25,733 nucleotides of DNA from a virus (lineage: Duplodnaviria > Heunggongvirae > Uroviricota > Caudoviricetes): positions 1 to 25,733 of IMG/VR virus record IMGVR_UViG_2585427772_000005; one strand, given 5' to 3'. The first letter of the stretch is position 1, and each line of letters opens with the position of its first letter. Below the pieces are notes generated by a model. That model made no database searches and was not told the origin of the DNA. It saw nothing but the letters and a program-made list of their open reading frames with translations. The position numbers were made by a program, and so were the translations under genes. Positions 4,933-25,733 of the stretch are shown piece by piece.

Positions 4933-5775
4933 GATGGCAGCCTCCGCGATGAATTTGATTAACTCACCACCGAGGTTTTCCACGACCATAAGGGTGGTGA
5001 GACGTACAGGGGTGGAAATACCGGTCATCACGGAACCCGGCCAGCCTTGCGGCTGCCCTGCACGCCCCACCATAATGCGAATGTGGCTGTGCTTAACGCA
5101 TAAAAAAACCGCCTGAGCGCGGTTATGCGCCGTGAATGATTTCGGGTTTCCACGCCCGGCACCCGTTTTATGAGGTGCAGGTGCACTATAATTCCACCCG
5201 TTCTGGTTTTCAATAGCTACATTCAACATTTTCTCTACCTTTCATCACCGAAGTGAACTTTGTTGATGCGGTGCCTGGTGCCTCCAGGTGACGTTAACCA
5301 GTTAACAATTAACGTCGGATACAGAGCATTCCCGTTACGCCCGTAAAAGACCGCTTGTTTTAACTGTTCCGCGTGCGCTGAGCCGCATTCACCGCATCAC
5401 AAAATTCACTTTAAAAAGGGCGGCAGAGCAGTCACGGAGTAGAACTGATACCGCCAAAAGTCACCAGAAAATTGATAACAGAGGGCGTTGCAGCGGAGTT
5501 GTCACTTAAGCGTATGGTCAACCTGACAACCCGGTGTCCTCAACGGGGGAAGAAATACCCCCGCCATACTTACCGCCGCGCCATTTCGCGGATTGCCACA
5601 ACCGGAAGCGCACGATCGAATTAAATTTAACGACGACCTATACAGAGAGACTAACTTCTCCGGGCGCTTTCGTGTTATGCCCTGACTTTTCAGGGATATA
5701 TCCTTTTCAGTAAACTGTCAGTGCCGGATTCTTATCCGTGTCCGGCGCACGCACTCTACCTCACCTGTGAATAAA

Positions 5776-11970: not shown

Positions 11971-12229
11971 ATACAGCGAACGCTATTGGTTTAGTTGGAT
12001 ATTTACTGTGCCGGACAAAAACGGTTTGCAGGGAAATCTTAGTTAAGTAGAATGACTGTGGGTGCTTGAGGCTATCTGTCTCAGGCATGAACACCAAAAG
12101 GCAGATAGAGAAAAGCCCCAGTTAACATTACGCGTCCTGCAAGACGCTTAACATTAATCTGAGGCCATATCTATGCTCTACACACGTAGGTTAGCCTCTT
12201 ACGTGCCGAAAGGCAAGGAGAAGCAGGCT

Positions 12230-12385
12230 ATGAAGCAGCAAAAGGCGATGCTAATCGCCCTGATCGTCATCTGTTTAACCGTCATAGTGACGGCACTGGT
12301 AACGAGGAAAGACCTCTGCGAGGTACGAATCCGAACCGGCCAGACGGAGGTCGCTGTCTTCACAGCTTACGAACCTGAGGAGTAA
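12230..12385 (+). CDS. hok: Hok/Gef-family type I toxin (HokD/RelF-like, 51 aa)
   Basis: The translation MKQQKAMLIALIVICLTVIVTALVTRKDLCEVRIRTGQTEVAVFTAYEPEE has the Hok-family hydrophobic helix and conserved LC-E-R core, and matches the chromosomal HokD/RelF sequence as I recall it. The track ORF starting at 12173 is an in-frame upstream extension. A strong terminator follows. Confidence 0.8.
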   Translation: MKQQKAMLIALIVICLTVIVTALVTRKDLCEVRIRTGQTEVAVFTAYEPEE

Positions 12386-14170: not shown

Positions 14171-14545
14171 ATGCTCATAGATTTGGTTTTACCTTACCCG
14201 CCGACGGTGAACACTTACTGGCGACGCCGTGGCAGCACATATTTTGTATCAAAAGCCGGGGAGCGTTATCGCCGGGCAGTGGCGCTTATTGTTCGCCAGC
14301 AGCGGCTGAAATTAAGCCTGTCCGGAAGGCTGGCGATAAAGGTGATTGCAGAGCCACCGGATAAGCGTCGTCGCGACCTGGACAATATCCTGAAAGCACC
14401 GCTGGATGCGCTGACGCATGCGGGAGTGTTAATGGACGATGAGCAGTTTGATGAAATCAATATCGTTCGTGGTCAGCCAGTATCTGGTGGACGTATGGGG
14501 GTGAAGATTTACCCCATAATGCATGAAGAGCAGGTCAAAAAATGA
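14171..14545 (+). CDS. rusA: Crossover junction endodeoxyribonuclease RusA (Holliday junction resolvase)
   Basis: 124-aa ORF with AGAGGTG upstream. Conserved RusA pattern (PPTVNTYWRRRG ... DKRRRDLDNILKAPLDALTHAGVLMDDEQ). Confidence 0.85.
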   Translation: MLIDLVLPYPPTVNTYWRRRGSTYFVSKAGERYRRAVALIVRQQRLKLSLSGRLAIKVIAEPPDKRRRDLDNILKAPLDALTHAGVLMDDEQFDEINIVRGQPVSGGRMGVKIYPIMHEEQVKK

Positions 14546-15363
14546 AACTGGAAGATTTACCGAAATACTACTCCCCAAAATCCCCTGGCCTGACCGATGC
14601 ATCGGCCTCAACGTCAAAAGATGCGCTGAGTATCACTGATGTGATGGCCGCGCAGGGCATGACACAGAATCGGGCTGAGATGGGGTTTTCTGCGTTCCTG
14701 GGGAAAATGGGCATCAGTATGAATGACAGGGCGCGGGCAACAGAATTACTGGCAGATTATGCACTCAGTCGGTGCGATCGTGTGGCGGCGTTGAGAAAAC
14801 TTCCGGCAGAAATAAAACCGGTAGTGATGCGCATTATGGCTTCGTATGCGTTTGAAGATTATGCCCGTAGCGCGGCGAGCAAAAAACAGTGCCCCTGCTG
14901 TCACGGAAAAAAATTTATTGAAAGCGAGGTTTTTACAAACAAGATCCAGTATCCGGATGGTAAGCCACCAGTGTGGGCAAAGTGCACAAAAGGCGTGTAT
15001 CCGTCTTACTGGGAAGAATGGAAAAAAGTCAGGGAGGTGGTAAAAGTTGCCTGTCCGGAGTGTGGCGGAAAGGGTGAGGTTTCCACCGCCTGTAAGGATT
15101 GCCGTGGGCGTGGTGTCGCCATTCATCGTGAAGAGTCGGTAAAACGTGGTATGCCTGTTATCAGAGATTGCCAGCGTTGTGGTGGTCGTGGCTGTGAAAG
15201 GCTGCCATCAACGGAGGCATTTAATGCCATATGCAAAGTGACGAGTGCTATCACGCTTGATACGTGGAAAAAATCAGTGAAACGCTTTTACGATACGTTG
15301 GTGGTTCGGTTTGACATTGAAGAGGCATGGGCGGAGCGGCAGTTAAAGAGGGTAACGCGATAG
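14542..15363 (+). CDS. Late-gene antitermination protein Q (Cys-rich zinc-binding Q family)
   Basis: 273-aa ORF coupled to rusA by an ATGA overlap. Multiple CxxC pairs (CPCCHGK, CPECGGKGE, CKDCRGRG, CQRCGGRGC), placed immediately upstream of a PR'-like promoter. Confidence 0.8.
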   Translation: MKLEDLPKYYSPKSPGLTDASASTSKDALSITDVMAAQGMTQNRAEMGFSAFLGKMGISMNDRARATELLADYALSRCDRVAALRKLPAEIKPVVMRIMASYAFEDYARSAASKKQCPCCHGKKFIESEVFTNKIQYPDGKPPVWAKCTKGVYPSYWEEWKKVREVVKVACPECGGKGEVSTACKDCRGRGVAIHREESVKRGMPVIRDCQRCGGRGCERLPSTEAFNAICKVTSAITLDTWKKSVKRFYDTLVVRFDIEEAWAERQLKRVTR

Positions 15364-15937: not shown

Positions 15938-16987
15938 ATGCTTAATACTGTAAAAATATCCAGTTGTGAGTTAATCAACGCCGACTGCCTGGAATTTATC
16001 CGGTCGTTACCCGAAAATTCTGTTGACCTGATAGTCACGGACCCGCCGTACTTTAAAGTGAAGCCTGAGGGCTGGGATAACCAGTGGAAGGGCGACGATG
16101 ATTACCTGAAGTGGCTGGACCAGTGTCTGGCGCAGTTCTGGCGGGTGCTGAAACCTGTCGGAAGTCTTTACCTGTTCTGTGGTCATCGCCTGGCATCTGA
16201 TATCGAAATCATGATGCGTGAACGCTTCAGTGTGCTGAACCATATTATCTGGGCGAAGCCGTCCGGACGCTGGAACGGATGCAACAAGGAAAGCCTGCGG
16301 GCGTATTTCCCCGCCACAGAGCGCATTCTGTTCGCGGAACATTATCAGGGGCCGTATCGTCCGAAAGATGCCGGGTATGCGGCGAAGGGCAGTGCACTGA
16401 AACAGCATGTGATGGCCCCGCTGATTTCTTACTTTCGTGATGCGCGCGCGGCCCTGGGGATAACGGCAAAACAGATTGCAGATGCCACAGGAAAGAAAAA
16501 CATGGTGTCGCACTGGTTCAGTGCCAGTCAGTGGCAGCTACCGAACGAAAGCGATTATCTGAAATTACAGTCGCTGTTTGCCCGGGTGGCAGAAGAGAAA
16601 CATCAGCGCGGTGAACTGGAAAAGCCCCACCACCAGCTGGTGGATACGTATACGTCACTGAACCGGCAGTATGTGGAGCTGCAGAGTGAATATAAGCATC
16701 TGCGGCGGTATTTTGGTGTGACGGCGCAGGTGCCGTACACGGATGTGTGGACACATAAACCGGTGCAGTTCTATCCCGGGAAACATCCGTGCGAAAAACC
16801 GGCAGAAATGCTGCAGCAGATAATCAGCGCAAGCAGTCGTCCGGGTGACCTGGTTGCAGATTTTTTTATGGGCTCAGGTTCAACGGTAAAAGCTGCACTG
16901 GCGCTCGGGCGTCGTGCGATTGGCGTTGAACTGGAGACCGGACGTTTTGAGCAGACAGTCAGGGAAGTTCAGGATTTAATCGTTTGA
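15938..16987 (+). CDS. Orphan DNA methyltransferase (probably N6-adenine; DPPY motif IV N-terminal to FxGxG motif I)
   Basis: 349-aa ORF. DLIVTDPPYF near the N-terminus and DFFMGSGSTVKAA near the C-terminus. No restriction-endonuclease-like partner ORF is adjacent. Confidence 0.85.
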   Translation: MLNTVKISSCELINADCLEFIRSLPENSVDLIVTDPPYFKVKPEGWDNQWKGDDDYLKWLDQCLAQFWRVLKPVGSLYLFCGHRLASDIEIMMRERFSVLNHIIWAKPSGRWNGCNKESLRAYFPATERILFAEHYQGPYRPKDAGYAAKGSALKQHVMAPLISYFRDARAALGITAKQIADATGKKNMVSHWFSASQWQLPNESDYLKLQSLFARVAEEKHQRGELEKPHHQLVDTYTSLNRQYVELQSEYKHLRRYFGVTAQVPYTDVWTHKPVQFYPGKHPCEKPAEMLQQIISASSRPGDLVADFFMGSGSTVKAALALGRRAIGVELETGRFEQTVREVQDLIV

Positions 16988-17036: not shown

Positions 17037-17112
17037 GGCCCTTTAGCTCAGTGGTGAGAGCGAGCGACTCATAATCGCCAGGTCGCTGGTTCAAATCCAG
17101 CAAGGGCCACCA
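17037..17112 (+). tRNA. tRNA with CAU anticodon, most likely tRNA-Ile2 (lysidine-modified, reads AUA)
   Basis: Cloverleaf read by hand: acceptor GGCCCTT/AAGGGCC, D-arm GCTC..GAGC, anticodon loop CTCATAA, T-arm GCTGG-TTCAAAT-CCAGC, encoded CCA. Closely resembles E. coli tRNA-Ile2 as recalled. Confidence 0.85.
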
Positions 17113-17212
17113 TCACAAACCGCCATTAGCTTATCAGGAAGAGCAGACGACACGATAACAGGGTTGTTGGTGCGGGGGCGGGTCCCCGATGACGGTCCAT
17201 TATCGGTATTCA

Positions 17213-17289
17213 GCGTTGTTAGCTCAGCCGGACAGAGCAATTGCCTTCTAAGCAATCGGTCACTGGTTCGAATCCAGTACAGCGCGCCA
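17213..17289 (+). tRNA. tRNA-Arg (anticodon UCU, reads AGA/AGG)
   Basis: Cloverleaf: acceptor GCGTTGT/ACAGCGC with one G-U pair, anticodon stem ATTGC/GCAAT, loop CTTCTAA, T-arm ACTGG-TTCGAAT-CCAGT, encoded CCA. Confidence 0.9.
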
Positions 17290-17396: not shown

Positions 17397-17753
17397 GTGT
17401 TGATTGAGTGTTTGTTATACGGTCTAATGGTTTTTTCAGCATTAAATATTTATCATTCATATGGTGTGGGTAGAGTGAATATTGATGAGGCGTCGGGGTG
17501 TTTCATCCTTAGGCAGCGTATTGATATAGTCAATGCAGAACGAGCAAAGGCCTTCAGCCGTTTGACAGTTTTGTTCTGTACTCCTGATCGTCTTTCGGGA
17601 AGAGACGTTATTATTCTGAATAGTGATGCTATACAGAGGGTTTGCGATGAGTTCATGGTGGCTAATTCAGAATTATTTGCTCTTGTTCAGGAGTACAACA
17701 GAATAGCCAGGACCTGTGGTATGGATGAACTTCGGATTACTCATCTGGGGTAG
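17397..17753 (+). CDS. Hypothetical cargo ORF, up to 118 aa; start uncertain
   Basis: Open frame in the AT-rich segment. No convincing SD before either the GTG at 17397 or the ATG at 17427. Composition is protein-like. Confidence 0.3.
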   Translation: MLIECLLYGLMVFSALNIYHSYGVGRVNIDEASGCFILRQRIDIVNAERAKAFSRLTVLFCTPDRLSGRDVIILNSDAIQRVCDEFMVANSELFALVQEYNRIARTCGMDELRITHLG

Positions 17754-18144
17754 ATACATATCTGGATTATCACCGGTTACGGTAAAAAGTGATTGCTTAC
17801 TGTTTTTGTGAATGGCATTGCAGCAGCCGGATAATGTCAGTGCTGGCTGACGGTGTGCTGGTGGCGGGGGTGGTGGTTGCTGCTTTCCCGTTGCTGAAAA
17901 AGAAAACGCCAGACTGTTAGCCGGGTATCAGTTAGCGGGAGAAATTTTTAAATACTTCACAATTCAGGCGGTTGACTGTTGTCTGGTTTGCGGGGAGTTT
18001 GTTAAAAGAAACTGGCATGGTGAATCCCCCTGTGCGGAGGGGCAATCAGCGAGTAGGTATATGGGATAATCGCGGATTCAGGTGCTGGTACTGAATTCAC
18101 CGGGAGGCACCCGGCACCATGCAATGGCACATAGCGCCACTCTC

Positions 18145-18178
18145 CAGCCCCTCTCCGGAGGGGCTGTTTATATTGATT
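18145..18178 (+). terminator. Strong rho-independent terminator
   Basis: 9-bp perfect GC-rich stem CAGCCCCTC / GAGGGGCTG with loop TCCG, followed by TTTATATTGATTTT. It lies 23 nt beyond the 3' end of the minus-strand ORF 18201..18536. Confidence 0.65.
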
Positions 18179-18200
18179 TTGTCAGATGTGAGTAAACTCC

Positions 18201-18536
18201 TTATGGACTTTGTTGTTTTAGCCCATAAGGACATATTTGCAGAGTGCAACGGTTATTAAAGCATTCATTCAATACGTTATCTGTATTTGTAGGGCATTCC
18301 TGGCTGTTTTTGATTAAATTCCAGAATGTTTTATTGAATGGTACTACGTTGTAAATGGTTACAGGCAGCACTTTGTTATTGAGCATGATGCCTGTGTGAG
18401 TCAGTGTAAATATACTTTCAGGAGGTAAGAAAGCATCCGATTGATACCAGATTATTAATTTTATTTTACTCCATATGACTGAAAAAGATATTCCGCATGA
18501 TGGCTGGATAACTGTATCAATCACAATCCACTTCAT
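18201..18536 (-). CDS. Hypothetical AT-rich cargo protein, 111 aa, on the opposite strand to the late operon
   Basis: AAGGAA 6 nt upstream of the ATG at 18536. Cys-containing C-terminus ([16 protein letters not shown]). A 245-bp AT-rich promoter-like region lies upstream. I recognise no family. Confidence 0.5.
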
Positions 18537-18781
18537 TTAGTTTCCTTGTTTATGCCTTGCTGGTGATGTTCTGAAAAGTATAAATGATATTTTTGATTGT
18601 AAACCATAGAGCAGAATTATTTTTCTGATGTTGTTTATTGTTTATTTAAATGCAGGGTGGTTTATATCTCGTCTTGTAGTTTATCCATGCATATCTGCTT
18701 GATGATGAGGTTTTTAATTAAGGTATGGTTTTGTGTTTTTTCTGTATTACATGTCAGGTATTTTAAAGAATCATTTTTCAG

Positions 18782-20647
18782 ATGGTGGAAAGAACCATGG
18801 CATTTAAACACTATGATGTTGTCAGGGCGGCGTCGCCGTCAGATCTTGCGGAAAAGCTGACACATAAACTGAAAGAGGGCTGGCAGCCGTTTGGTAGTCC
18901 GGTGGCCATAACCCCTTATACCCTGATGCAGGCGATTGCAGCAGAAGGTGATGTGGTCGTCAGTGGTGCAACTGAGCCGGAGTGGTACTACGTCATCGTA
19001 CTGGCCGGGCAGTCCAATGCCATGGCTTACGGTGAAGGGCTTCCGCTTCCGGATTCATACGATGCGCCCCATCCGCGCATTAAGCAACTGGCCCGTCGTA
19101 ACACAGTGACTCCCGGTGGTGAAGTATGCGTATTTAACGACATCATTCCTGCTGACCATTGTCTGCATGATGTTCAGGATATGAGTACGATTAACCATCC
19201 CCGGGCTGACCTGAGCAAAGGGCAGTACGGCTGTGTCGGACAGGGCTTACATATTGCCAAAAAACTGCTTCCGTATATCCCTAATAACGCGGGGATCCTG
19301 CTGGTACCATGCTGTCGTGGTGGTTCGGCATTCACCCAGGGCACGGAGGGGACATTCAGCGAGTCCACGGGGGCCAGTCAGGATTCGGCTCGCTGGGGAG
19401 TGGGTAAGCCGTTATATCAGGATCTGCTTTTCCGCACGAAGGCAGCATTGCAGAAAAACCCGAAAAACGTTTTGCTGGCGATATGCTGGATGCAGGGGGA
19501 ATTCGATATGACGAATGCCAGTTACGCCCAGCAGCCAGCAGCATTTCTTGCAATGGTACAGCAGTTCCGTGCTGACCTTGCCGGGCTGGCGGCGCAGTGT
19601 CACGGTGGAAGTCCGGCATCAGTCCCCTGGATTTGTGGCGACACGACATACGCGTGGAAACAAGAACACGGTACGCAATATGAAGTGGTATATGGTGCAT
19701 ATAAAGGTAAAGAATCCCAGCAGATTTATTTTGTTCCCTTTATGACCGATGGTAGCGGAGTTAATACACCGACAAACAACCCGTCAGAAGATCCTGATAT
19801 TGTCGGGTCTGGTTATTACGGTTCGGCATCCCGAACGAACAAAAACTGGGTATCATCAAATCGCCCGACGCATTTCAGCTCATGGGCGCGTCGTGGCATT
19901 ATTCCCGATCGTATGGCAACCGCTATTCTGAACGCAGCCGGGCGCACCTCAGCCTTCATCAGTGGTAAGGCACCGGAAATCAAACCCTCGCCCGGCGGCG
20001 ACACGCCATCGGGTCCGTCTGCAGATACGTCCGTTCGCACAATCTCCCTGCTGCCGACAGCCGGAGAGGCTGCTGCGCAGGGCTGGAGCATTAAGAATGG
20101 CGGAATTCAGTTGTCAGATGGTGTATTTAAGATCACCAAGCAGAGCAATAAAGCCTGGTCCCTGACGCGCCCGGTGGATGACGCAGTCTCCCTGCTGACA
20201 CGGGGTGGCAGACTGAGCTGTAAGTTTCGACTGTCAGGCGCACTGACCAACAACCAGTTCGGTCTGGGAATTTATCTGTATACCGATGTAGCGTTACCTG
20301 ACGTCGTGGCGATGACCGGGACTGGTAACCCGTTCCTGATGTCGTTCTTCACCCAGACCACAGACGGCAAACTGAATCTGATGCATCACAAGAAAGCCGG
20401 AAACACAAAGTTGGGCGAGTTCGGGAATTACAGTAACGACTGGCAGACGCTGGAGCTGGTGTTCACCGCCGGCAGTGCCACGGTTACTCCGAAACTGAAT
20501 GGAGTGGCTGGCCCGGCATTCCAGGTCATAAAAGACAGTCTGACACTGGGGCTGAATGCGCTGACGTTAACTGATATCACTAAAAATGCCGCGTACGGCG
20601 TCGATATCGGCAGCCTGGTGCTGGAAATCAATAATCCCGCAGCATAA
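18782..20647 (+). CDS. NanS-p-like sialate O-acetylesterase (DUF1737 N-domain, SASA/SGNH esterase domain, C-terminal lectin-like domain)
   Basis: 621-aa ORF. VIVLAGQSNAMAYGEG is the SGNH/SASA catalytic-serine motif. Same architecture and position (after the tRNAs) as the nanS-p/yjhS-like genes of Stx phages. The alternative start at 18797 (MAFKHYDV) has a modest SD. Confidence 0.8.
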   Translation: MVERTMAFKHYDVVRAASPSDLAEKLTHKLKEGWQPFGSPVAITPYTLMQAIAAEGDVVVSGATEPEWYYVIVLAGQSNAMAYGEGLPLPDSYDAPHPRIKQLARRNTVTPGGEVCVFNDIIPADHCLHDVQDMSTINHPRADLSKGQYGCVGQGLHIAKKLLPYIPNNAGILLVPCCRGGSAFTQGTEGTFSESTGASQDSARWGVGKPLYQDLLFRTKAALQKNPKNVLLAICWMQGEFDMTNASYAQQPAAFLAMVQQFRADLAGLAAQCHGGSPASVPWICGDTTYAWKQEHGTQYEVVYGAYKGKESQQIYFVPFMTDGSGVNTPTNNPSEDPDIVGSGYYGSASRTNKNWVSSNRPTHFSSWARRGIIPDRMATAILNAAGRTSAFISGKAPEIKPSPGGDTPSGPSADTSVRTISLLPTAGEAAAQGWSIKNGGIQLSDGVFKITKQSNKAWSLTRPVDDAVSLLTRGGRLSCKFRLSGALTNNQFGLGIYLYTDVALPDVVAMTGTGNPFLMSFFTQTTDGKLNLMHHKKAGNTKLGEFGNYSNDWQTLELVFTAGSATVTPKLNGVAGPAFQVIKDSLTLGLNALTLTDITKNAAYGVDIGSLVLEINNPAA

Positions 20648-20670
20648 GGAAGAGCAGGAGAGCAAAACAG

Positions 20671-21138
20671 ATGCTTAAGACAAACAGTCTGCGAGAGTCC
20701 ATGCTTCATGGGTGTCGGTGGTGCCAGGCTAATCCCGAGAAATTCACCATTTTCGTGGAGAGCGGCAACATTGAAACGACCGGAGAAGCGCCCTCGTTTG
20801 TTTACCGCTATCAGATGGTGATGTTTGTCATGGATTACGCCGGAGAGCTGGACGACCTCACGCTGCCGCTGCTGGCGTGGTTATCCGAAAATCAGCCACA
20901 GTTGTTGCTCAATCCGGAGCGTAATCAGGACATCAAATTTTCTGCCGTTATCAATGACGATGACAGCGCCGATCTCCTGTTTACGCTCCCCCTGCGGGAA
21001 CGCGTTCGCATCACGCGCAACAGTCAGGGCACACCGCAGGCAGAACACCTGCCGGAGCCAAAACCCCGTCTGCCCTCTTCCGAAGGCGACTGGTCGCATG
21101 TATTCCAGGATGTGACGTGGGGTGAAAGCGATGGATAA
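20671..21138 (+). CDS. P2 gpR-like tail completion protein
   Basis: 155-aa ORF with AGGAG upstream. Similar in length and sequence to P2 R as recalled (LPLLAWLSENQP against P2 VPVLAWLRENQP). Confidence 0.75.
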   Translation: MLKTNSLRESMLHGCRWCQANPEKFTIFVESGNIETTGEAPSFVYRYQMVMFVMDYAGELDDLTLPLLAWLSENQPQLLLNPERNQDIKFSAVINDDDSADLLFTLPLRERVRITRNSQGTPQAEHLPEPKPRLPSSEGDWSHVFQDVTWGESDG

Positions 21139-21766
21139 GGCATTCACCAGCGTGGATGAAACCTTTGAGGCTATCCGCGACAGCCTGAATCAGCAGGCCA
21201 TCAATAACATCGCCAGAAAGCTGGCACAGGATTTACGTCGCGCCCAGCAGGCACGTATCCGATCACAAAAAGCGCCGGACGGGACCGAATGGACACCACG
21301 CAGACGCCGCGTAACCCGGATACAGGAGCGCATTCGCTTTATCTGGAATAACGAAGCACGCACGCTGAAAAACTGGCATCACGACACGGGGAAATACGGG
21401 CGAACCATTACCGGGTGGGATGAGGATAAAAACAATATCCGCACGTTTTACCGGGATGACATCGACCGTTTTCTGGAAATACGCACCCGGCGCATCAACC
21501 AGGACAGCACAAAGCGCGTCCCCATGTTCGTAAAACTGCGCACCGCCCGCTACCTGAAAGCCCGTGCAGATGCCTCCGGTGTGACGGTGGGTTACAGCGG
21601 CGTGGCCGCACGTATTGCACGCGTTCATCAGTTCGGTGAGCGCGATCAGGTTGCGCCGGGCATTTTCACCGATTACCCGGTACGTGAGCTGTTGGGTATC
21701 AGCCAGGCAGATGAGCGCCTGATTTATAACACGGTGCTGGGCCGGATTGCGGAGGCTGTACGGTGA
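21131..21766 (+). CDS. P2 gpS-like tail completion / virion morphogenesis protein
   Basis: ATG overlaps the R stop (ATGGATAA). Position between R and V and family resemblance; longer than P2 S. Confidence 0.65.
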   Translation: MDKAFTSVDETFEAIRDSLNQQAINNIARKLAQDLRRAQQARIRSQKAPDGTEWTPRRRRVTRIQERIRFIWNNEARTLKNWHHDTGKYGRTITGWDEDKNNIRTFYRDDIDRFLEIRTRRINQDSTKRVPMFVKLRTARYLKARADASGVTVGYSGVAARIARVHQFGERDQVAPGIFTDYPVRELLGISQADERLIYNTVLGRIAEAVR

Positions 21767-22344
21767 GCGCAGAACTCATGCGACTGCTGAGCAACATCAT
21801 CCGCACCGGGATCATCTCTGAAGTTGATGAGAAGTCCTGGCGCGTGCGCGTTCGCAGCGGCGAACTGGAAACAGGCTGGTTGCGCTGGAACACCACGCGC
21901 GCGGGAGCCTTCAATGTGTGGCTGCCGCCATCACCAGGCGAACAGGTGGTAATTGCCTGCATTGGCGGCAACCCGGAAACCGCCATGATAATTGGCAGCC
22001 TGTGGAGTGATGCCAGTCCGGCCCCCGGCAAAAGCCTGAAAGAAATCGTGGTCAGCGCGCCGGATGGCGCGGTGTTCCGCTACGACGCAGACGCTGGCGC
22101 ACTGAGCGCCAGCGGCATGAAAACAGCCACCCTGCAGGCATCCGTCAGCGTGACACTGGATACGCCCGTCGTGGAATGCACAAACCTTCTGAGAACAGCG
22201 ACGCTTGACGTCACAAAAGGGGGAAAGATGAGCGGCAATATCACGCACAGCGGCGGCAACTTCACCTCAAACGGCATCACAGTGCATACGCATAAACACG
22301 GTGGTGTGAAAGGCGGCAGCGATTCGACAGGAGGCCCGCAGTGA
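21763..22344 (+). CDS. Baseplate assembly protein V (P2 gpV-like spike)
   Basis: Strong similarity to P2 V across the length (IRTGII ... GEQVVIACIGG ... PDGAVFRYD ... TLDTPVVECTN ... KGGKMSGNITHSGG ... HTHKHGG). GTG start overlaps the S stop. Confidence 0.85.
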   Translation: MSAELMRLLSNIIRTGIISEVDEKSWRVRVRSGELETGWLRWNTTRAGAFNVWLPPSPGEQVVIACIGGNPETAMIIGSLWSDASPAPGKSLKEIVVSAPDGAVFRYDADAGALSASGMKTATLQASVSVTLDTPVVECTNLLRTATLDVTKGGKMSGNITHSGGNFTSNGITVHTHKHGGVKGGSDSTGGPQ

Positions 22345-22691
22345 CAACCCGCTACACAGGAATGAATCCGGACGGGACGGGAAACCTGAATGATATGGAG
22401 CACCTGAAACAGTCAGCCAGGGACATCCTGACCACCCCGCTGGCCAGCCGGGTTATGCGACGGGAATATGGCAGCCTTGTACCTGATTTGATTGACGAAC
22501 CCATGAATAACACCACGCGTCTGCAATGCATGAGTGCTGCCGTGATTGCGCTGACACGATGGGAACCCCGCATTGCCCTGGACGCCATCGACGTTGTCTG
22601 GAAAGCGGGAGGCCGCGCCGGGGTGACGCTGTCGGGCACTGTCATGCAGACCATGCAGAATGTTGAGTTAACCATCACGCTGAGGGAGTAA
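22341..22691 (+). CDS. Baseplate assembly protein W (P2 gpW, gp25-like)
   Basis: VTTRYTGMN ... RVMRREYGSL ... WEPRIAL against P2 W MTARYLGMN ... RVMRRDYGSL ... WEPRVTL. GTGA overlap with V. Confidence 0.85.
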   Translation: MTTRYTGMNPDGTGNLNDMEHLKQSARDILTTPLASRVMRREYGSLVPDLIDEPMNNTTRLQCMSAAVIALTRWEPRIALDAIDVVWKAGGRAGVTLSGTVMQTMQNVELTITLRE

Positions 22692-22694
22692 ATC

Positions 22695-23591
22695 ATGCCT
22701 GCTGTTGACCTTTCCCAGTTACCGGAACCCGCCATCATCGCGAAGCCTGATTTTGAGGCAATTCTGGCTGACACAAAGGCCATGATGATTGCGTCCTATC
22801 CTGCCGAACAGCGTGAAGCCGTCTCCGCCGCGCTGGAGCTGGAATCGGAACCCCTGAACGTTATCGCCCAGACAACAGCGTTTCGTGAAATGCTGTTACG
22901 CCAGCGGGTCAATGAGGGTGCACGCGCCTGCATGTTAAGCCACAGCGCCGGGACAGACCTGGACAACCTCGCGGGCAATATGAACACAAAGCGCCTGGTT
23001 ATCACTCCGGCAACGGATACCACCGACGCGGTGATGGAAAGCGACACATCGCTGAGACTGCGGGCGCAACGGGCGTATGACGGTCTGAGTGTTGCTGGCC
23101 CGTCAGGCGCATACGAGTATTTTGCACGCAGCGCCAGCGGTCTGGTACGCGACGCGCGAGCCATCAGCCCGTCTCCGGCCAACGTGACGGTTTCCATCCT
23201 GTCCACTGAAGGCGACGGCACAGCAACGGAGGCGTTGCTTAATACCGTTCGCGCCGTTCTGAATGCAGAGGATACCCGCCCGGTGGCCGACCGCCTGACC
23301 GTACAGAGCGCCAGAATCGTGACATGGCGGCTGAATGCAAAACTGTACTTTTACCCCGGCCCGGAATCCGAACCTATTCTGGCCGCGGCTGAATCGTCGT
23401 TCAGGAAGTGGCTGGCTGAGCAGGGGCTTATCGGTCAGGACGTGGCGTTGTCCGCCATTGCTGCCGCACTGCATGTGCACGGTGTGCAACGCGTGGAGAT
23501 AATCGAACCCACACAGAATATGGCCATCAGCGACATACAGGCGGCGCGCTGTGAGTCATTCACCATCAGCGAAGGTGGACGCAATGAGTAA
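22695..23591 (+). CDS. Baseplate assembly protein J (P2 gpJ)
   Basis: Near-collinear similarity to P2 J (LPEPAIIAKPDFE ... RQRVNE ... DGLSVAG ... YEYFARSA ... RPVADRLTVQSA ... YPGPESEPI ... LHVHGVQRVE). GGGAG upstream. Confidence 0.9.
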   Translation: MPAVDLSQLPEPAIIAKPDFEAILADTKAMMIASYPAEQREAVSAALELESEPLNVIAQTTAFREMLLRQRVNEGARACMLSHSAGTDLDNLAGNMNTKRLVITPATDTTDAVMESDTSLRLRAQRAYDGLSVAGPSGAYEYFARSASGLVRDARAISPSPANVTVSILSTEGDGTATEALLNTVRAVLNAEDTRPVADRLTVQSARIVTWRLNAKLYFYPGPESEPILAAAESSFRKWLAEQGLIGQDVALSAIAAALHVHGVQRVEIIEPTQNMAISDIQAARCESFTISEGGRNE

Positions 23592-24192
23592 TTCGTTGTT
23601 ACCACCATCAGCCAGCAATTTCATGCGTTGTGCCGAAGCCGTCGGAACACGCATTACAGACATTCCGGTAGACCTCAACACGCTGTGGTCGCCGGACACC
23701 TGCCCGGTGCATCTGCTGCCTTATCTCGCCTGGGCGTTTTCCGTTGACCGCTGGGATCGCAACTGGCCGGAAGAGACAAAGCGACAGGTGATTCGTGATG
23801 CATGGCTGATACACCGACACAAAGGGACCATCAGCGCACTGCGAAGAGCCGTGGAGCCTCTCGGCTACCTGATTGAAGTAAAGGAGTGGTGGCAACTCAA
23901 CGAGGAGCCGGGAACATTTCGCATTGTTGTCGGAGTACTTGATCAGGGCATCACCGATGAAATGTATCAGGAACTTGAGCGCCTTATTGCGGATGCAAAA
24001 CCAGTAAGTCGCCATCTGACGGGGCTGGCGATCAGCCTGAGTGTGAACGGAAAGATTTTCGTTGGTACGGGATGCTATCACGGCGATGCCCTGACGGTTT
24101 ATCCCTACACCCCGGAGTCCATTATTGTCGAAGGGGATTATTTCCCTGCCCCGGCCATTCATTTAATTGATAATCTGAGAGTAAACGCATGA
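23584..24192 (+). CDS. Tail protein I (P2 gpI)
   Basis: ATG overlaps the J stop (ATGAGTAA); the track start at 23551 lies inside J. Similarity to P2 I (WSPDTCPVHLLPYLAWAFSVDRWD ... HKGTISALRRAVEPLGYLI ... IADAKPVSRHL). Confidence 0.85.
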   Translation: MSNSLLPPSASNFMRCAEAVGTRITDIPVDLNTLWSPDTCPVHLLPYLAWAFSVDRWDRNWPEETKRQVIRDAWLIHRHKGTISALRRAVEPLGYLIEVKEWWQLNEEPGTFRIVVGVLDQGITDEMYQELERLIADAKPVSRHLTGLAISLSVNGKIFVGTGCYHGDALTVYPYTPESIIVEGDYFPAPAIHLIDNLRVNA

Positions 24193-25733
24193 CAGTGAAA
24201 TACTACGCCATTCTGACTAATCAGGGCGCGGCACGACTGGCTAACGCGACGATGCTCGGCAGTAAGCTGAATCTGACGCGAATGGCCGTTGGTGATGCAA
24301 ATGGTGTGTTACCAACACCAGACCCTGCACAAACAAAACTGATTAACCAGAAACGCATTGCACCGCTGAATCTTCTGAGTGTTGACCCTAACAATCAGAG
24401 CCAGATTATTGCGGAGCAAATCATCCCTGAAAGCGAGGGTGGATTCTGGATCCGTGAGATTGGTCTTTATGATGATAAAGGTGTACTCATTGCGGTGGCA
24501 AACTGCCCGGAAACGTACAAACCGCAGTTGCAGGAAGGCAGTGGACGCACCCAGACTATCCGCATGATTCTGGTTGTCACGAACACCGAAGCCATCACGC
24601 TGAAAATCGACCCGTCTGTGGTTCTGGCAACCCGCAAATATGTGGATGATAAAATCTCAAAGCACGAGCAGTCACGACGTCACCCGGACGCCTCGCTGAC
24701 CGCAAAAGGCTTTGTTCAACTTAGCAGTGCCACGGACAGTCAATCAGAAACTGAGGCTGCCACGCCGAAGGCTGTGAAAATCGCGTATGATCTGGCCTGG
24801 GGAAAATACACAGCCCAGGATGCAACAACGACCCGTAAAGGGATCGTACAACTGAGCAGTGCCACCAACAGCACCTCTGAAACGCTGGCCGCCACACCAA
24901 AAGCCGTCAAGGCGGCATACGACCTTGCAGCCGGCAAGGCCCCCGTCAGCCACACTCACCCATGGAGTCAGATAACGGGAGTGCCTGCTGCCTCGCTGAC
25001 GGCAAAAGGCACCGTACAACTGAGCAGTGCCATCAACAGCACGTCTGAAATACTGGCCGCCACACCGAAAGCGGTCAAGGATGCATACGATCTGGCAAAC
25101 GGAAAACAACCGGCAGATGCCACGCTCACTGCTCTGGCAGGACTTGCCACTGCAGCAGATCGGTTGCCTTATTTTACCGGAGCAGACCGCGCAGCGCTGG
25201 CAACCCTTACAGCTATTGGTCGCGCTATTATCGCTAAGGGCAGTATAAAAGATGTCCTCAATTACCTTGGTTTGGGGGAAGGCTCTGCATTGCCTGTTGG
25301 TGTACCGGTTCCGTGGCCCACCGCCACACCGCCAGAAGGCTGGTTAAAGTGCGACGGGCGCGCCTTTACAAAAGAACAATATCCTGTTCTGGCCAGAGCC
25401 TACCCGACCCTCCGTCTTCCCGATTTACGCGGTGAATTTATTCGTGGCTGGGATGACGGACGTGGTGTGGATGCCGGGCGACAATTATTATCTTCACAGG
25501 GGGATGCAATAAGAAATATTGAGGGATTCGCAGATGGCGGGATCGGTATGTCTTTTGATGCAATCAGAGGGGCTTTTTACGATGCAGGAACACGATCAGC
25601 GAGAATGCCGAATAACACAACTACTATAGACAAAACCGATGACCTTGGATTCGACGCCTCTCGTGTCGTGCCAACAGCTAATGAAAACCGTCCTCGTAAT
25701 ATTGCCTTTAATTATATCGTAAGGGCGGCATAA
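24189..25733 (+). CDS. Tail fibre protein (P2 gpH-like N-terminus, three tail-fibre repeats, C-terminal collar/receptor-binding-like domain)
   Basis: ATGA overlap with I. The N-terminus matches P2 H (GGFWIREIGLYDDKGVLIAVAN ... YKPQLQEGSGR ... KYVDDKISKHEQSRRHPDASLTAKGF). The stop codon is at the last three bases of the window. Confidence 0.85.
   Translation: MTVKYYAILTNQGAARLANATMLGSKLNLTRMAVGDANGVLPTPDPAQTKLINQKRIAPLNLLSVDPNNQSQIIAEQIIPESEGGFWIREIGLYDDKGVLIAVANCPETYKPQLQEGSGRTQTIRMILVVTNTEAITLKIDPSVVLATRKYVDDKISKHEQSRRHPDASLTAKGFVQLSSATDSQSETEAATPKAVKIAYDLAWGKYTAQDATTTRKGIVQLSSATNSTSETLAATPKAVKAAYDLAAGKAPVSHTHPWSQITGVPAASLTAKGTVQLSSAINSTSEILAATPKAVKDAYDLANGKQPADATLTALAGLATAADRLPYFTGADRAALATLTAIGRAIIAKGSIKDVLNYLGLGEGSALPVGVPVPWPTATPPEGWLKCDGRAFTKEQYPVLARAYPTLRLPDLRGEFIRGWDDGRGVDAGRQLLSSQGDAIRNIEGFADGGIGMSFDAIRGAFYDAGTRSARMPNNTTTIDKTDDLGFDASRVVPTANENRPRNIAFNYIVRAA
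24690..25110 (+). repeat. Three tandem roughly 145-bp in-frame repeats in the fibre gene (TAKGxVQLSSAxNSTSExLAATPKAVKxAYDLAxGK)
   Basis: Direct reading of DNA and protein. The repeats also create the spurious antisense ORFs 24740..24955, 24744..25109 and 24968..25150. Confidence 0.8.

Follow-up and report, generated by a model that had tools for sequence, protein, structure and literature searches.

[quoted passage not shown] 2014, mBio, PMC4045071). When iraL is deleted, CFT073 and Shigella sonnei contain less RpoS in log phase and its half-life in that phase is halved, from about 5 to about 2.5 min. In K-12, log-phase RpoS rises when iraL is supplied under its native promoter, on a fragment that begins at -100 and includes the coding region (PMC4045071). 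His6-IraL co-purifies with CBP-RssB. In two-hybrid assays, the contacts of IraL were confined to the N-terminal receiver domain of RssB; those of IraM extended to both domains (PMC4045071). In later work, the iraL mRNA or protein of CFT073 was found to respond to the loss of Fur and to a temperature shift to 37 °C, and RNA-seq experiments on CFT073 have detected expression of iraL. The log-phase RpoS trait has been linked to uropathogenic E. coli and Shigella, and iraL is reported to be under-represented in EHEC and STEC.

Two further proteins invite comparison. [quoted passage not shown] It is an anti-adaptor induced by Mg2+ starvation and PhoP, whereas IraL acts in unstressed log phase, and it binds both domains of RssB instead of the N-terminal one only. 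The two genes also differ in upstream region, with no obvious similarity by visual comparison, and in genomic location. iraM has been described as lying on the cryptic prophage e14 (PMC4045071); in K-12 it adjoins e14, just past its annotated right end and beyond the icdC pseudogene. PmrD, a PhoP-induced connector that binds PmrA, is likewise a small receiver-domain binder with an unusual small beta-barrel, but it has another target, lacks the four-cysteine tail and has no detectable sequence similarity to IraL.

Here we compare these systems with a locus in the window, by which we mean the whole stretch of 25,733 nucleotides of tailed-phage DNA that was analysed. The features of this stretch are listed in the table. 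On the evidence of its sequence, the 111-codon gene on the strand opposite to its neighbours is almost certainly a prophage copy of iraL, encoding an RssB anti-adaptor that would stabilise RpoS. Gene, product, partner, promoter and phenotype have all been published already, and the gene is not new: the novelty suggested in the initial annotation gives way to identity with the CFT073 protein characterised in 2014 (PMC4045071).

Table. Features of the window discussed in the text, in order of position
Feature	Position	Strand	Remark
C4 antisense RNA	4990-5077	-	Rfam
isrK	5102-5178	-	Rfam
DicF	5418-5469	-	Rfam
sok	12060-12235	+	Rfam; adjoins hok-type locus
Antiterminator Q	14542-15363	+
DNA methyltransferase	15938-16987	+
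tRNAs	17037-17289	+
118-aa cargo ORF	17397-17753	+	matches phrog_2873 (unknown function)
DUF3927 ORF, 43 aa	17789-17920	+	matches PHROG labelled TciB-like (cell-division inhibition or colicin resistance; moron)
STnc100-family prophage sRNA gene	17986-18175	+	Rfam RF02076, 132 bits vs gathering score 47
STnc100 terminator hairpin	18145-18166	+	terminator scan
iraL moron cassette	18165-18796		about 630 bp, 32.6% GC; between STnc100 terminator and nanS-p start codon
iraL coding sequence	18201-18536	-	ATG start, 111 aa
AAGGA Shine-Dalgarno	6 nt before iraL ATG	-	read from sequence
iraL mRNA 5' leader	18537-18569	-	33 nt including AAGGA; published 5'-RACE sequence placed in window
sigma-70-type promoter of iraL	18577-18603	-	read from sequence relative to mapped start
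PhoP-box-like direct repeat TGTTTA-N5-TATTTA	18632-18648	+	candidate; -63 to -79 from iraL start
nanS-p-type esterase	18782/18797-20647	+	SASA/DUF1737/DUF6645

Identity of the opposite-strand gene

The protein of the window is identical in 111 of 111 residues to WP_000871291.1 of CFT073 (iraL, c1429), which is encoded at 1343465-1343800 of that genome within a lambdoid prophage adjacent to potB. At the nucleotide level, the window, CFT073 and O104:H4 are 99% identical over the coding sequence and the whole upstream region. The published criterion for the iraL subtype asks for a coding region that is at least 95% identical to that of CFT073 iraL and for a conserved promoter region (PMC4045071); the allele of the window shows 100% amino-acid identity and 99% nucleotide identity over the coding sequence and the upstream region.

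The initial annotation had stated that the protein matched no recognised family and had proposed a sensitive profile search. That search contradicts the statement, returning the NCBIfam model NF007393 'anti-adapter protein IraM', which matches residues 1-110 with 162 bits (E 4.7e-48) and so exceeds its curated cutoff of 121, and RefSeq labels the same sequence IraM in hundreds of E. coli genomes. Compared with K-12 IraM (b1160), the alignment is gapless with 62% identity, and the crystallised IraM(1-78) (PDB 8twd_A) is matched at an E value of 9e-32. Other collections say less: the only match in PHROGs is phrog_4407, a family of unknown function, and the local Pfam gave none for the ORF even at an E value of 10. 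A search for homologous proteins recovered Escherichia-type relatives only, and Salmonella RssC was not among them.

The reading frame is a real gene and no product of chance, because dN/dS relative to K-12 iraM is 0.17, the exact protein occurs widely (on at least 1000 contigs) and 1446 of the 5426 complete E. coli genomes searched (about 27%) contain the cassette. The dN/dS value points to purifying selection between iraL and iraM; it was obtained at a dS of 1.5, which is near saturation. All of these genome matches have at least 90% identity, and 1428 of them cover at least 80% of the query, so the gene is conserved where frameshifts or a lack of conservation in related prophages would have spoken against the initial reading. 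The description given there of an opposite-strand ORF with a good Shine-Dalgarno sequence, about 245 bp of AT-rich DNA upstream and a cysteine-containing C-terminus also proved accurate. The ORF has 35.1% GC against 50.3% for the whole window, and the upstream DNA has 29.4% over positions 18537-18781 or 30.4% over 18537-18796, where the longer span extends to the start of nanS-p in RefSeq; the cysteines are C81, C92, C97 and C102.

Predicted fold, RssB contacts and cysteine tail

IraL divides into a PmrD-like beta-barrel domain (residues 1-78), which would be the part that binds RssB, and a tail with the four cysteines (residues 79-111). The structure prediction proposed initially was made with AlphaFold2 from 14 members of the family. 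The model is confident over residues 1-80 (pLDDT mostly 78-91) and disordered over residues 81-111 (pLDDT below 50). Its six strands and a helix at residues 69-77 reproduce the antiparallel barrel and C-terminal helix of 8TWD. Its best match in the PDB is 8twd_A, IraM in the IraM-RssB complex, with an rmsd of 1.2 Å over 78 columns and a TMt of 0.91. The PmrD structures 2jso, 4hn7 and 2rqx follow with TMt values of 0.69-0.73, and nothing else was significant. This agrees with the description of the IraM fold as resembling PmrD only (8TWD structure paper).

The resemblance to PmrD, together with a precomputed newer Pfam annotation (PF11183.15) that places the family under PF11183 PmrD, would allow IraL to be a PmrD-like connector acting mainly on another response regulator such as PmrA, with RssB as a secondary target. 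We regard this as extremely unlikely. The PmrD model of the local Pfam, PF11183.13, recognises PmrD but matches neither IraL nor IraM at E values up to 10, and hhalign gives a probability of 1.5% for the family against E. coli PmrD. Kinship with PmrD is thus a matter of structure, because the comparison of profiles is negative. The residues that contact RssB are conserved, moreover, and co-purification with RssB has been demonstrated (PMC4045071).

The residues of IraM at the interface with RssB are listed in the 8TWD paper. [quoted passage not shown] Contacts to the C-terminal domain and the linker are kept less fully, with three of five identical in cluster II and two of four in cluster III; P66 is retained. 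The changes from IraM to IraL are T13S, L75I, H63N and I64V, and the two in cluster II are conservative. [quoted passage not shown] At the position of C14, which contacts RssB in IraM, the relatives have either Cys or Ser.

The tail has the motif C81-P-x9-C92-x4-C97-x4-C102-P-Y-G. Its four cysteines and the ICPYG end are present without exception in the IraM/IraL relatives recovered, including those with as little as 54% identity. The corresponding tail of IraM was removed for crystallography as proteolytically unstable, and the only crystal structure accordingly omits it (8TWD paper); the words zinc and cysteine are both absent from that paper. Phmmer matches to Dph3/Kti11 zinc ribbons (E 0.26-0.9) align to residues 9-47, outside the cysteine-rich tail, and were dismissed as noise.

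Transcription start, promoter and a candidate second input

The start of the iraL transcript has been determined by 5'-RACE as ACATCACCAGCAAGGCATAAACAAGGAAAC, and the start site is preceded by sigma-70-like -10 and -35 elements (PMC4045071). We located ACATCACCAGCAAGGCATAAACAAGGAAAC in the window, where it places the transcription start at 18569 and substantiates the initial suggestion that the ORF has a promoter-like region of its own. Read from the sequence relative to this start, the promoter consists of a -10 hexamer TATACT (18577-18582) and a -35-like hexamer TTTACA (18598-18603) with a spacer of 15 bp. A generic promoter scan missed the mapped promoter and returned two other weak sites instead, a yield at or below chance expectation. 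Single substitutions relative to CFT073 lie in the region of the -35-like hexamer, at -1 and in the leader, so that the level of iraL expression could differ between the two. At the other end of the gene, the terminator scan gave no clear intrinsic terminator on the minus strand and there is no obvious U-tract; the iraL transcript may therefore run antisense into STnc100. The STnc100 gene is full-length and lies convergent with iraL and outside the cassette; 25 nt separate its end from the stop codon of iraL.

The consensus of the PhoP box is (T/G)GTTTA-N5-(T/G)GTTTA. With at most one mismatch allowed, the sole match to it in the window is TGTTTATTGTTTATTTA at 18632-18648, upstream of the mapped start. 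The repeat is invariant in CFT073 and O104:H4. Since dinucleotide shuffling of the 260-bp intergenic region yields such a match in 4.4% of cases, we treat it as weak evidence. PhoP control of iraL is not reported in the papers that mention both iraL and PhoP. We speculate that the cysteine tail could be a zinc-binding or redox-sensing module governing the stability or activity of the anti-adaptor, and that the repeat could add an Mg2+ or acid input to the log-phase promoter, but we consider this combination rather unlikely. Neither a zinc or redox function of the tail nor a PhoP-type second input for iraL is reported in the literature on IraL and IraM that was examined.

Based on the published function and the features described above, we propose the following hypothetical scheme, in which (i) a sigma-70 promoter of its own would drive leftward transcription of iraL, a prophage-borne paralogue of iraM, with the start at 18569 and without reliance on the surrounding Q-dependent late operon; (ii) IraL, as a small PmrD-like beta-barrel, would bind the N-terminal receiver domain of the adaptor RssB; (iii) RssB occupied in this way would no longer deliver RpoS to the ClpXP protease; and (iv) RpoS would thereby be stabilised in the lysogen, even in exponential growth. 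Experiments in CFT073 and Shigella sonnei have established this function for the identical protein (PMC4045071). For the allele of the window, we infer RssB binding and RpoS stabilisation from the 100% identity of the protein and the 99% identity of the promoter.

The moron cassette and its prophage neighbourhood

The genes that flank iraL all lie on the plus strand of a lambdoid prophage. The limits of the insertion were defined with PPwrbA_EH2201, an stx-negative and unannotated lambdoid phage that has the same order of Q, tRNAs, STnc100 and nanS-p and serves as an empty-site comparator. In the alignment with the window, homology stops at about 18164, past the STnc100 hairpin, and returns at about 18795 at the nanS-p ATG. 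Thus, the cassette is a discrete insert absent from PPwrbA_EH2201, with its own transcription start site and a deviating base composition (32.6% GC against 50.3%). These observations support the view of iraL as an independently acquired, AT-rich moron with its own promoter, as proposed in the initial annotation. The same cassette lies between the Q/tRNA region and the lysis genes in the deposited phage genome record vB_EcoS-640R1. In CFT073, the protein is identical, the promoter and leader DNA is 99% identical, the mapped start sequence is the same, and the order is also alike, with tRNAs, DUF3927, the pseudo-ORF/STnc100, iraL on the minus strand and DUF1737/nanS-p in a lambdoid prophage. The two differ in what follows: nanS-p is full-length and precedes P2-type tail genes in the window, whereas it is truncated and precedes lysis genes in CFT073.

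The proposed correspondence of the position to the toxin locus of Stx phages also holds, as the cassette occupies the Q-to-lysis cargo slot used by stx. Like stx and other morons between Q and S, iraL is AT-rich cargo that follows Q and the tRNAs and precedes nanS-p and the lysis genes; unlike them, it lies on the opposite strand, has a constitutive-type promoter of its own without dependence on Q, and encodes a product that acts inside the lysogen. The Stx-converting phages in the phage collection match the STnc100 part of the query only and never the iraL part, in line with the report that iraL is under-represented among EHEC and STEC. O104:H4 carries iraL, on a separate prophage.

A moron for phage defence, superinfection exclusion or toxin-like conversion, acting on phage or host and not on RssB, could also be expected as AT-rich opposite-strand cargo in the stx slot, next to a DUF3927 ORF that matches a PHROG annotated as a TciB-like moron. 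It is the position that speaks for such a role, which we consider very unlikely: PADLOC found no families at E values up to 0.01, IraL has neither a signal peptide nor a membrane segment, its fold is that of IraM and PmrD, and experiments on the identical protein have established both its partner, RssB, and its effect, the stabilisation of RpoS (PMC4045071). Of the functions guessed at in the initial annotation, lysogenic conversion thus stands, in the form of raised log-phase RpoS, while exclusion and defence fall away with the negative PADLOC result and with host RssB as the target. We therefore retain the reading of the gene as iraL.

Several further observations concern the neighbours of the cassette. 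The 118-aa and DUF3927 ORFs are two further cargo ORFs between the tRNAs and STnc100, the former without a RefSeq annotation at the O104:H4 locus. Opposite STnc100, at about 18005-18130 of the window, RefSeq has a partial 'hypothetical protein' pseudogene that is probably spurious. Of the usual trio of prophage tRNA genes (Ile2/'Met-CAT', Arg, Arg), the second, at 17123-17199 on the plus strand, has degenerated: it departs from the copies in O104:H4 and PPwrbA in its anticodon and T arms, and it is called by neither ARAGORN nor Rfam. On the other side, P2-type tail genes (gpR, S, V, W, J, I and H; region 20300-25733, plus strand) begin 23 nt after the nanS-p-type esterase, with no lambdoid lysis or head genes in between. 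The counterpart of this junction in O104:H4 lies in a separate P2-like prophage with its own nanS-p-like DUF6645 gene, and no complete genome matches the window across both its lambdoid and its P2-like parts. The window looks like a recombinant of two prophages joined through esterase paralogues, or an assembly chimera. This rearrangement of nanS-p and the tail genes does not touch the iraL cassette.

In summary, our analysis makes modest additions to what is published on iraL, namely a moron of about 630 bp placed exactly between the STnc100 terminator and nanS-p, in a slot that holds no iraL in the Stx phages searched. The prophage of the window would be a carrier of a regulator of the general stress response of its host, and its lysogens should have higher levels of RpoS in log phase.
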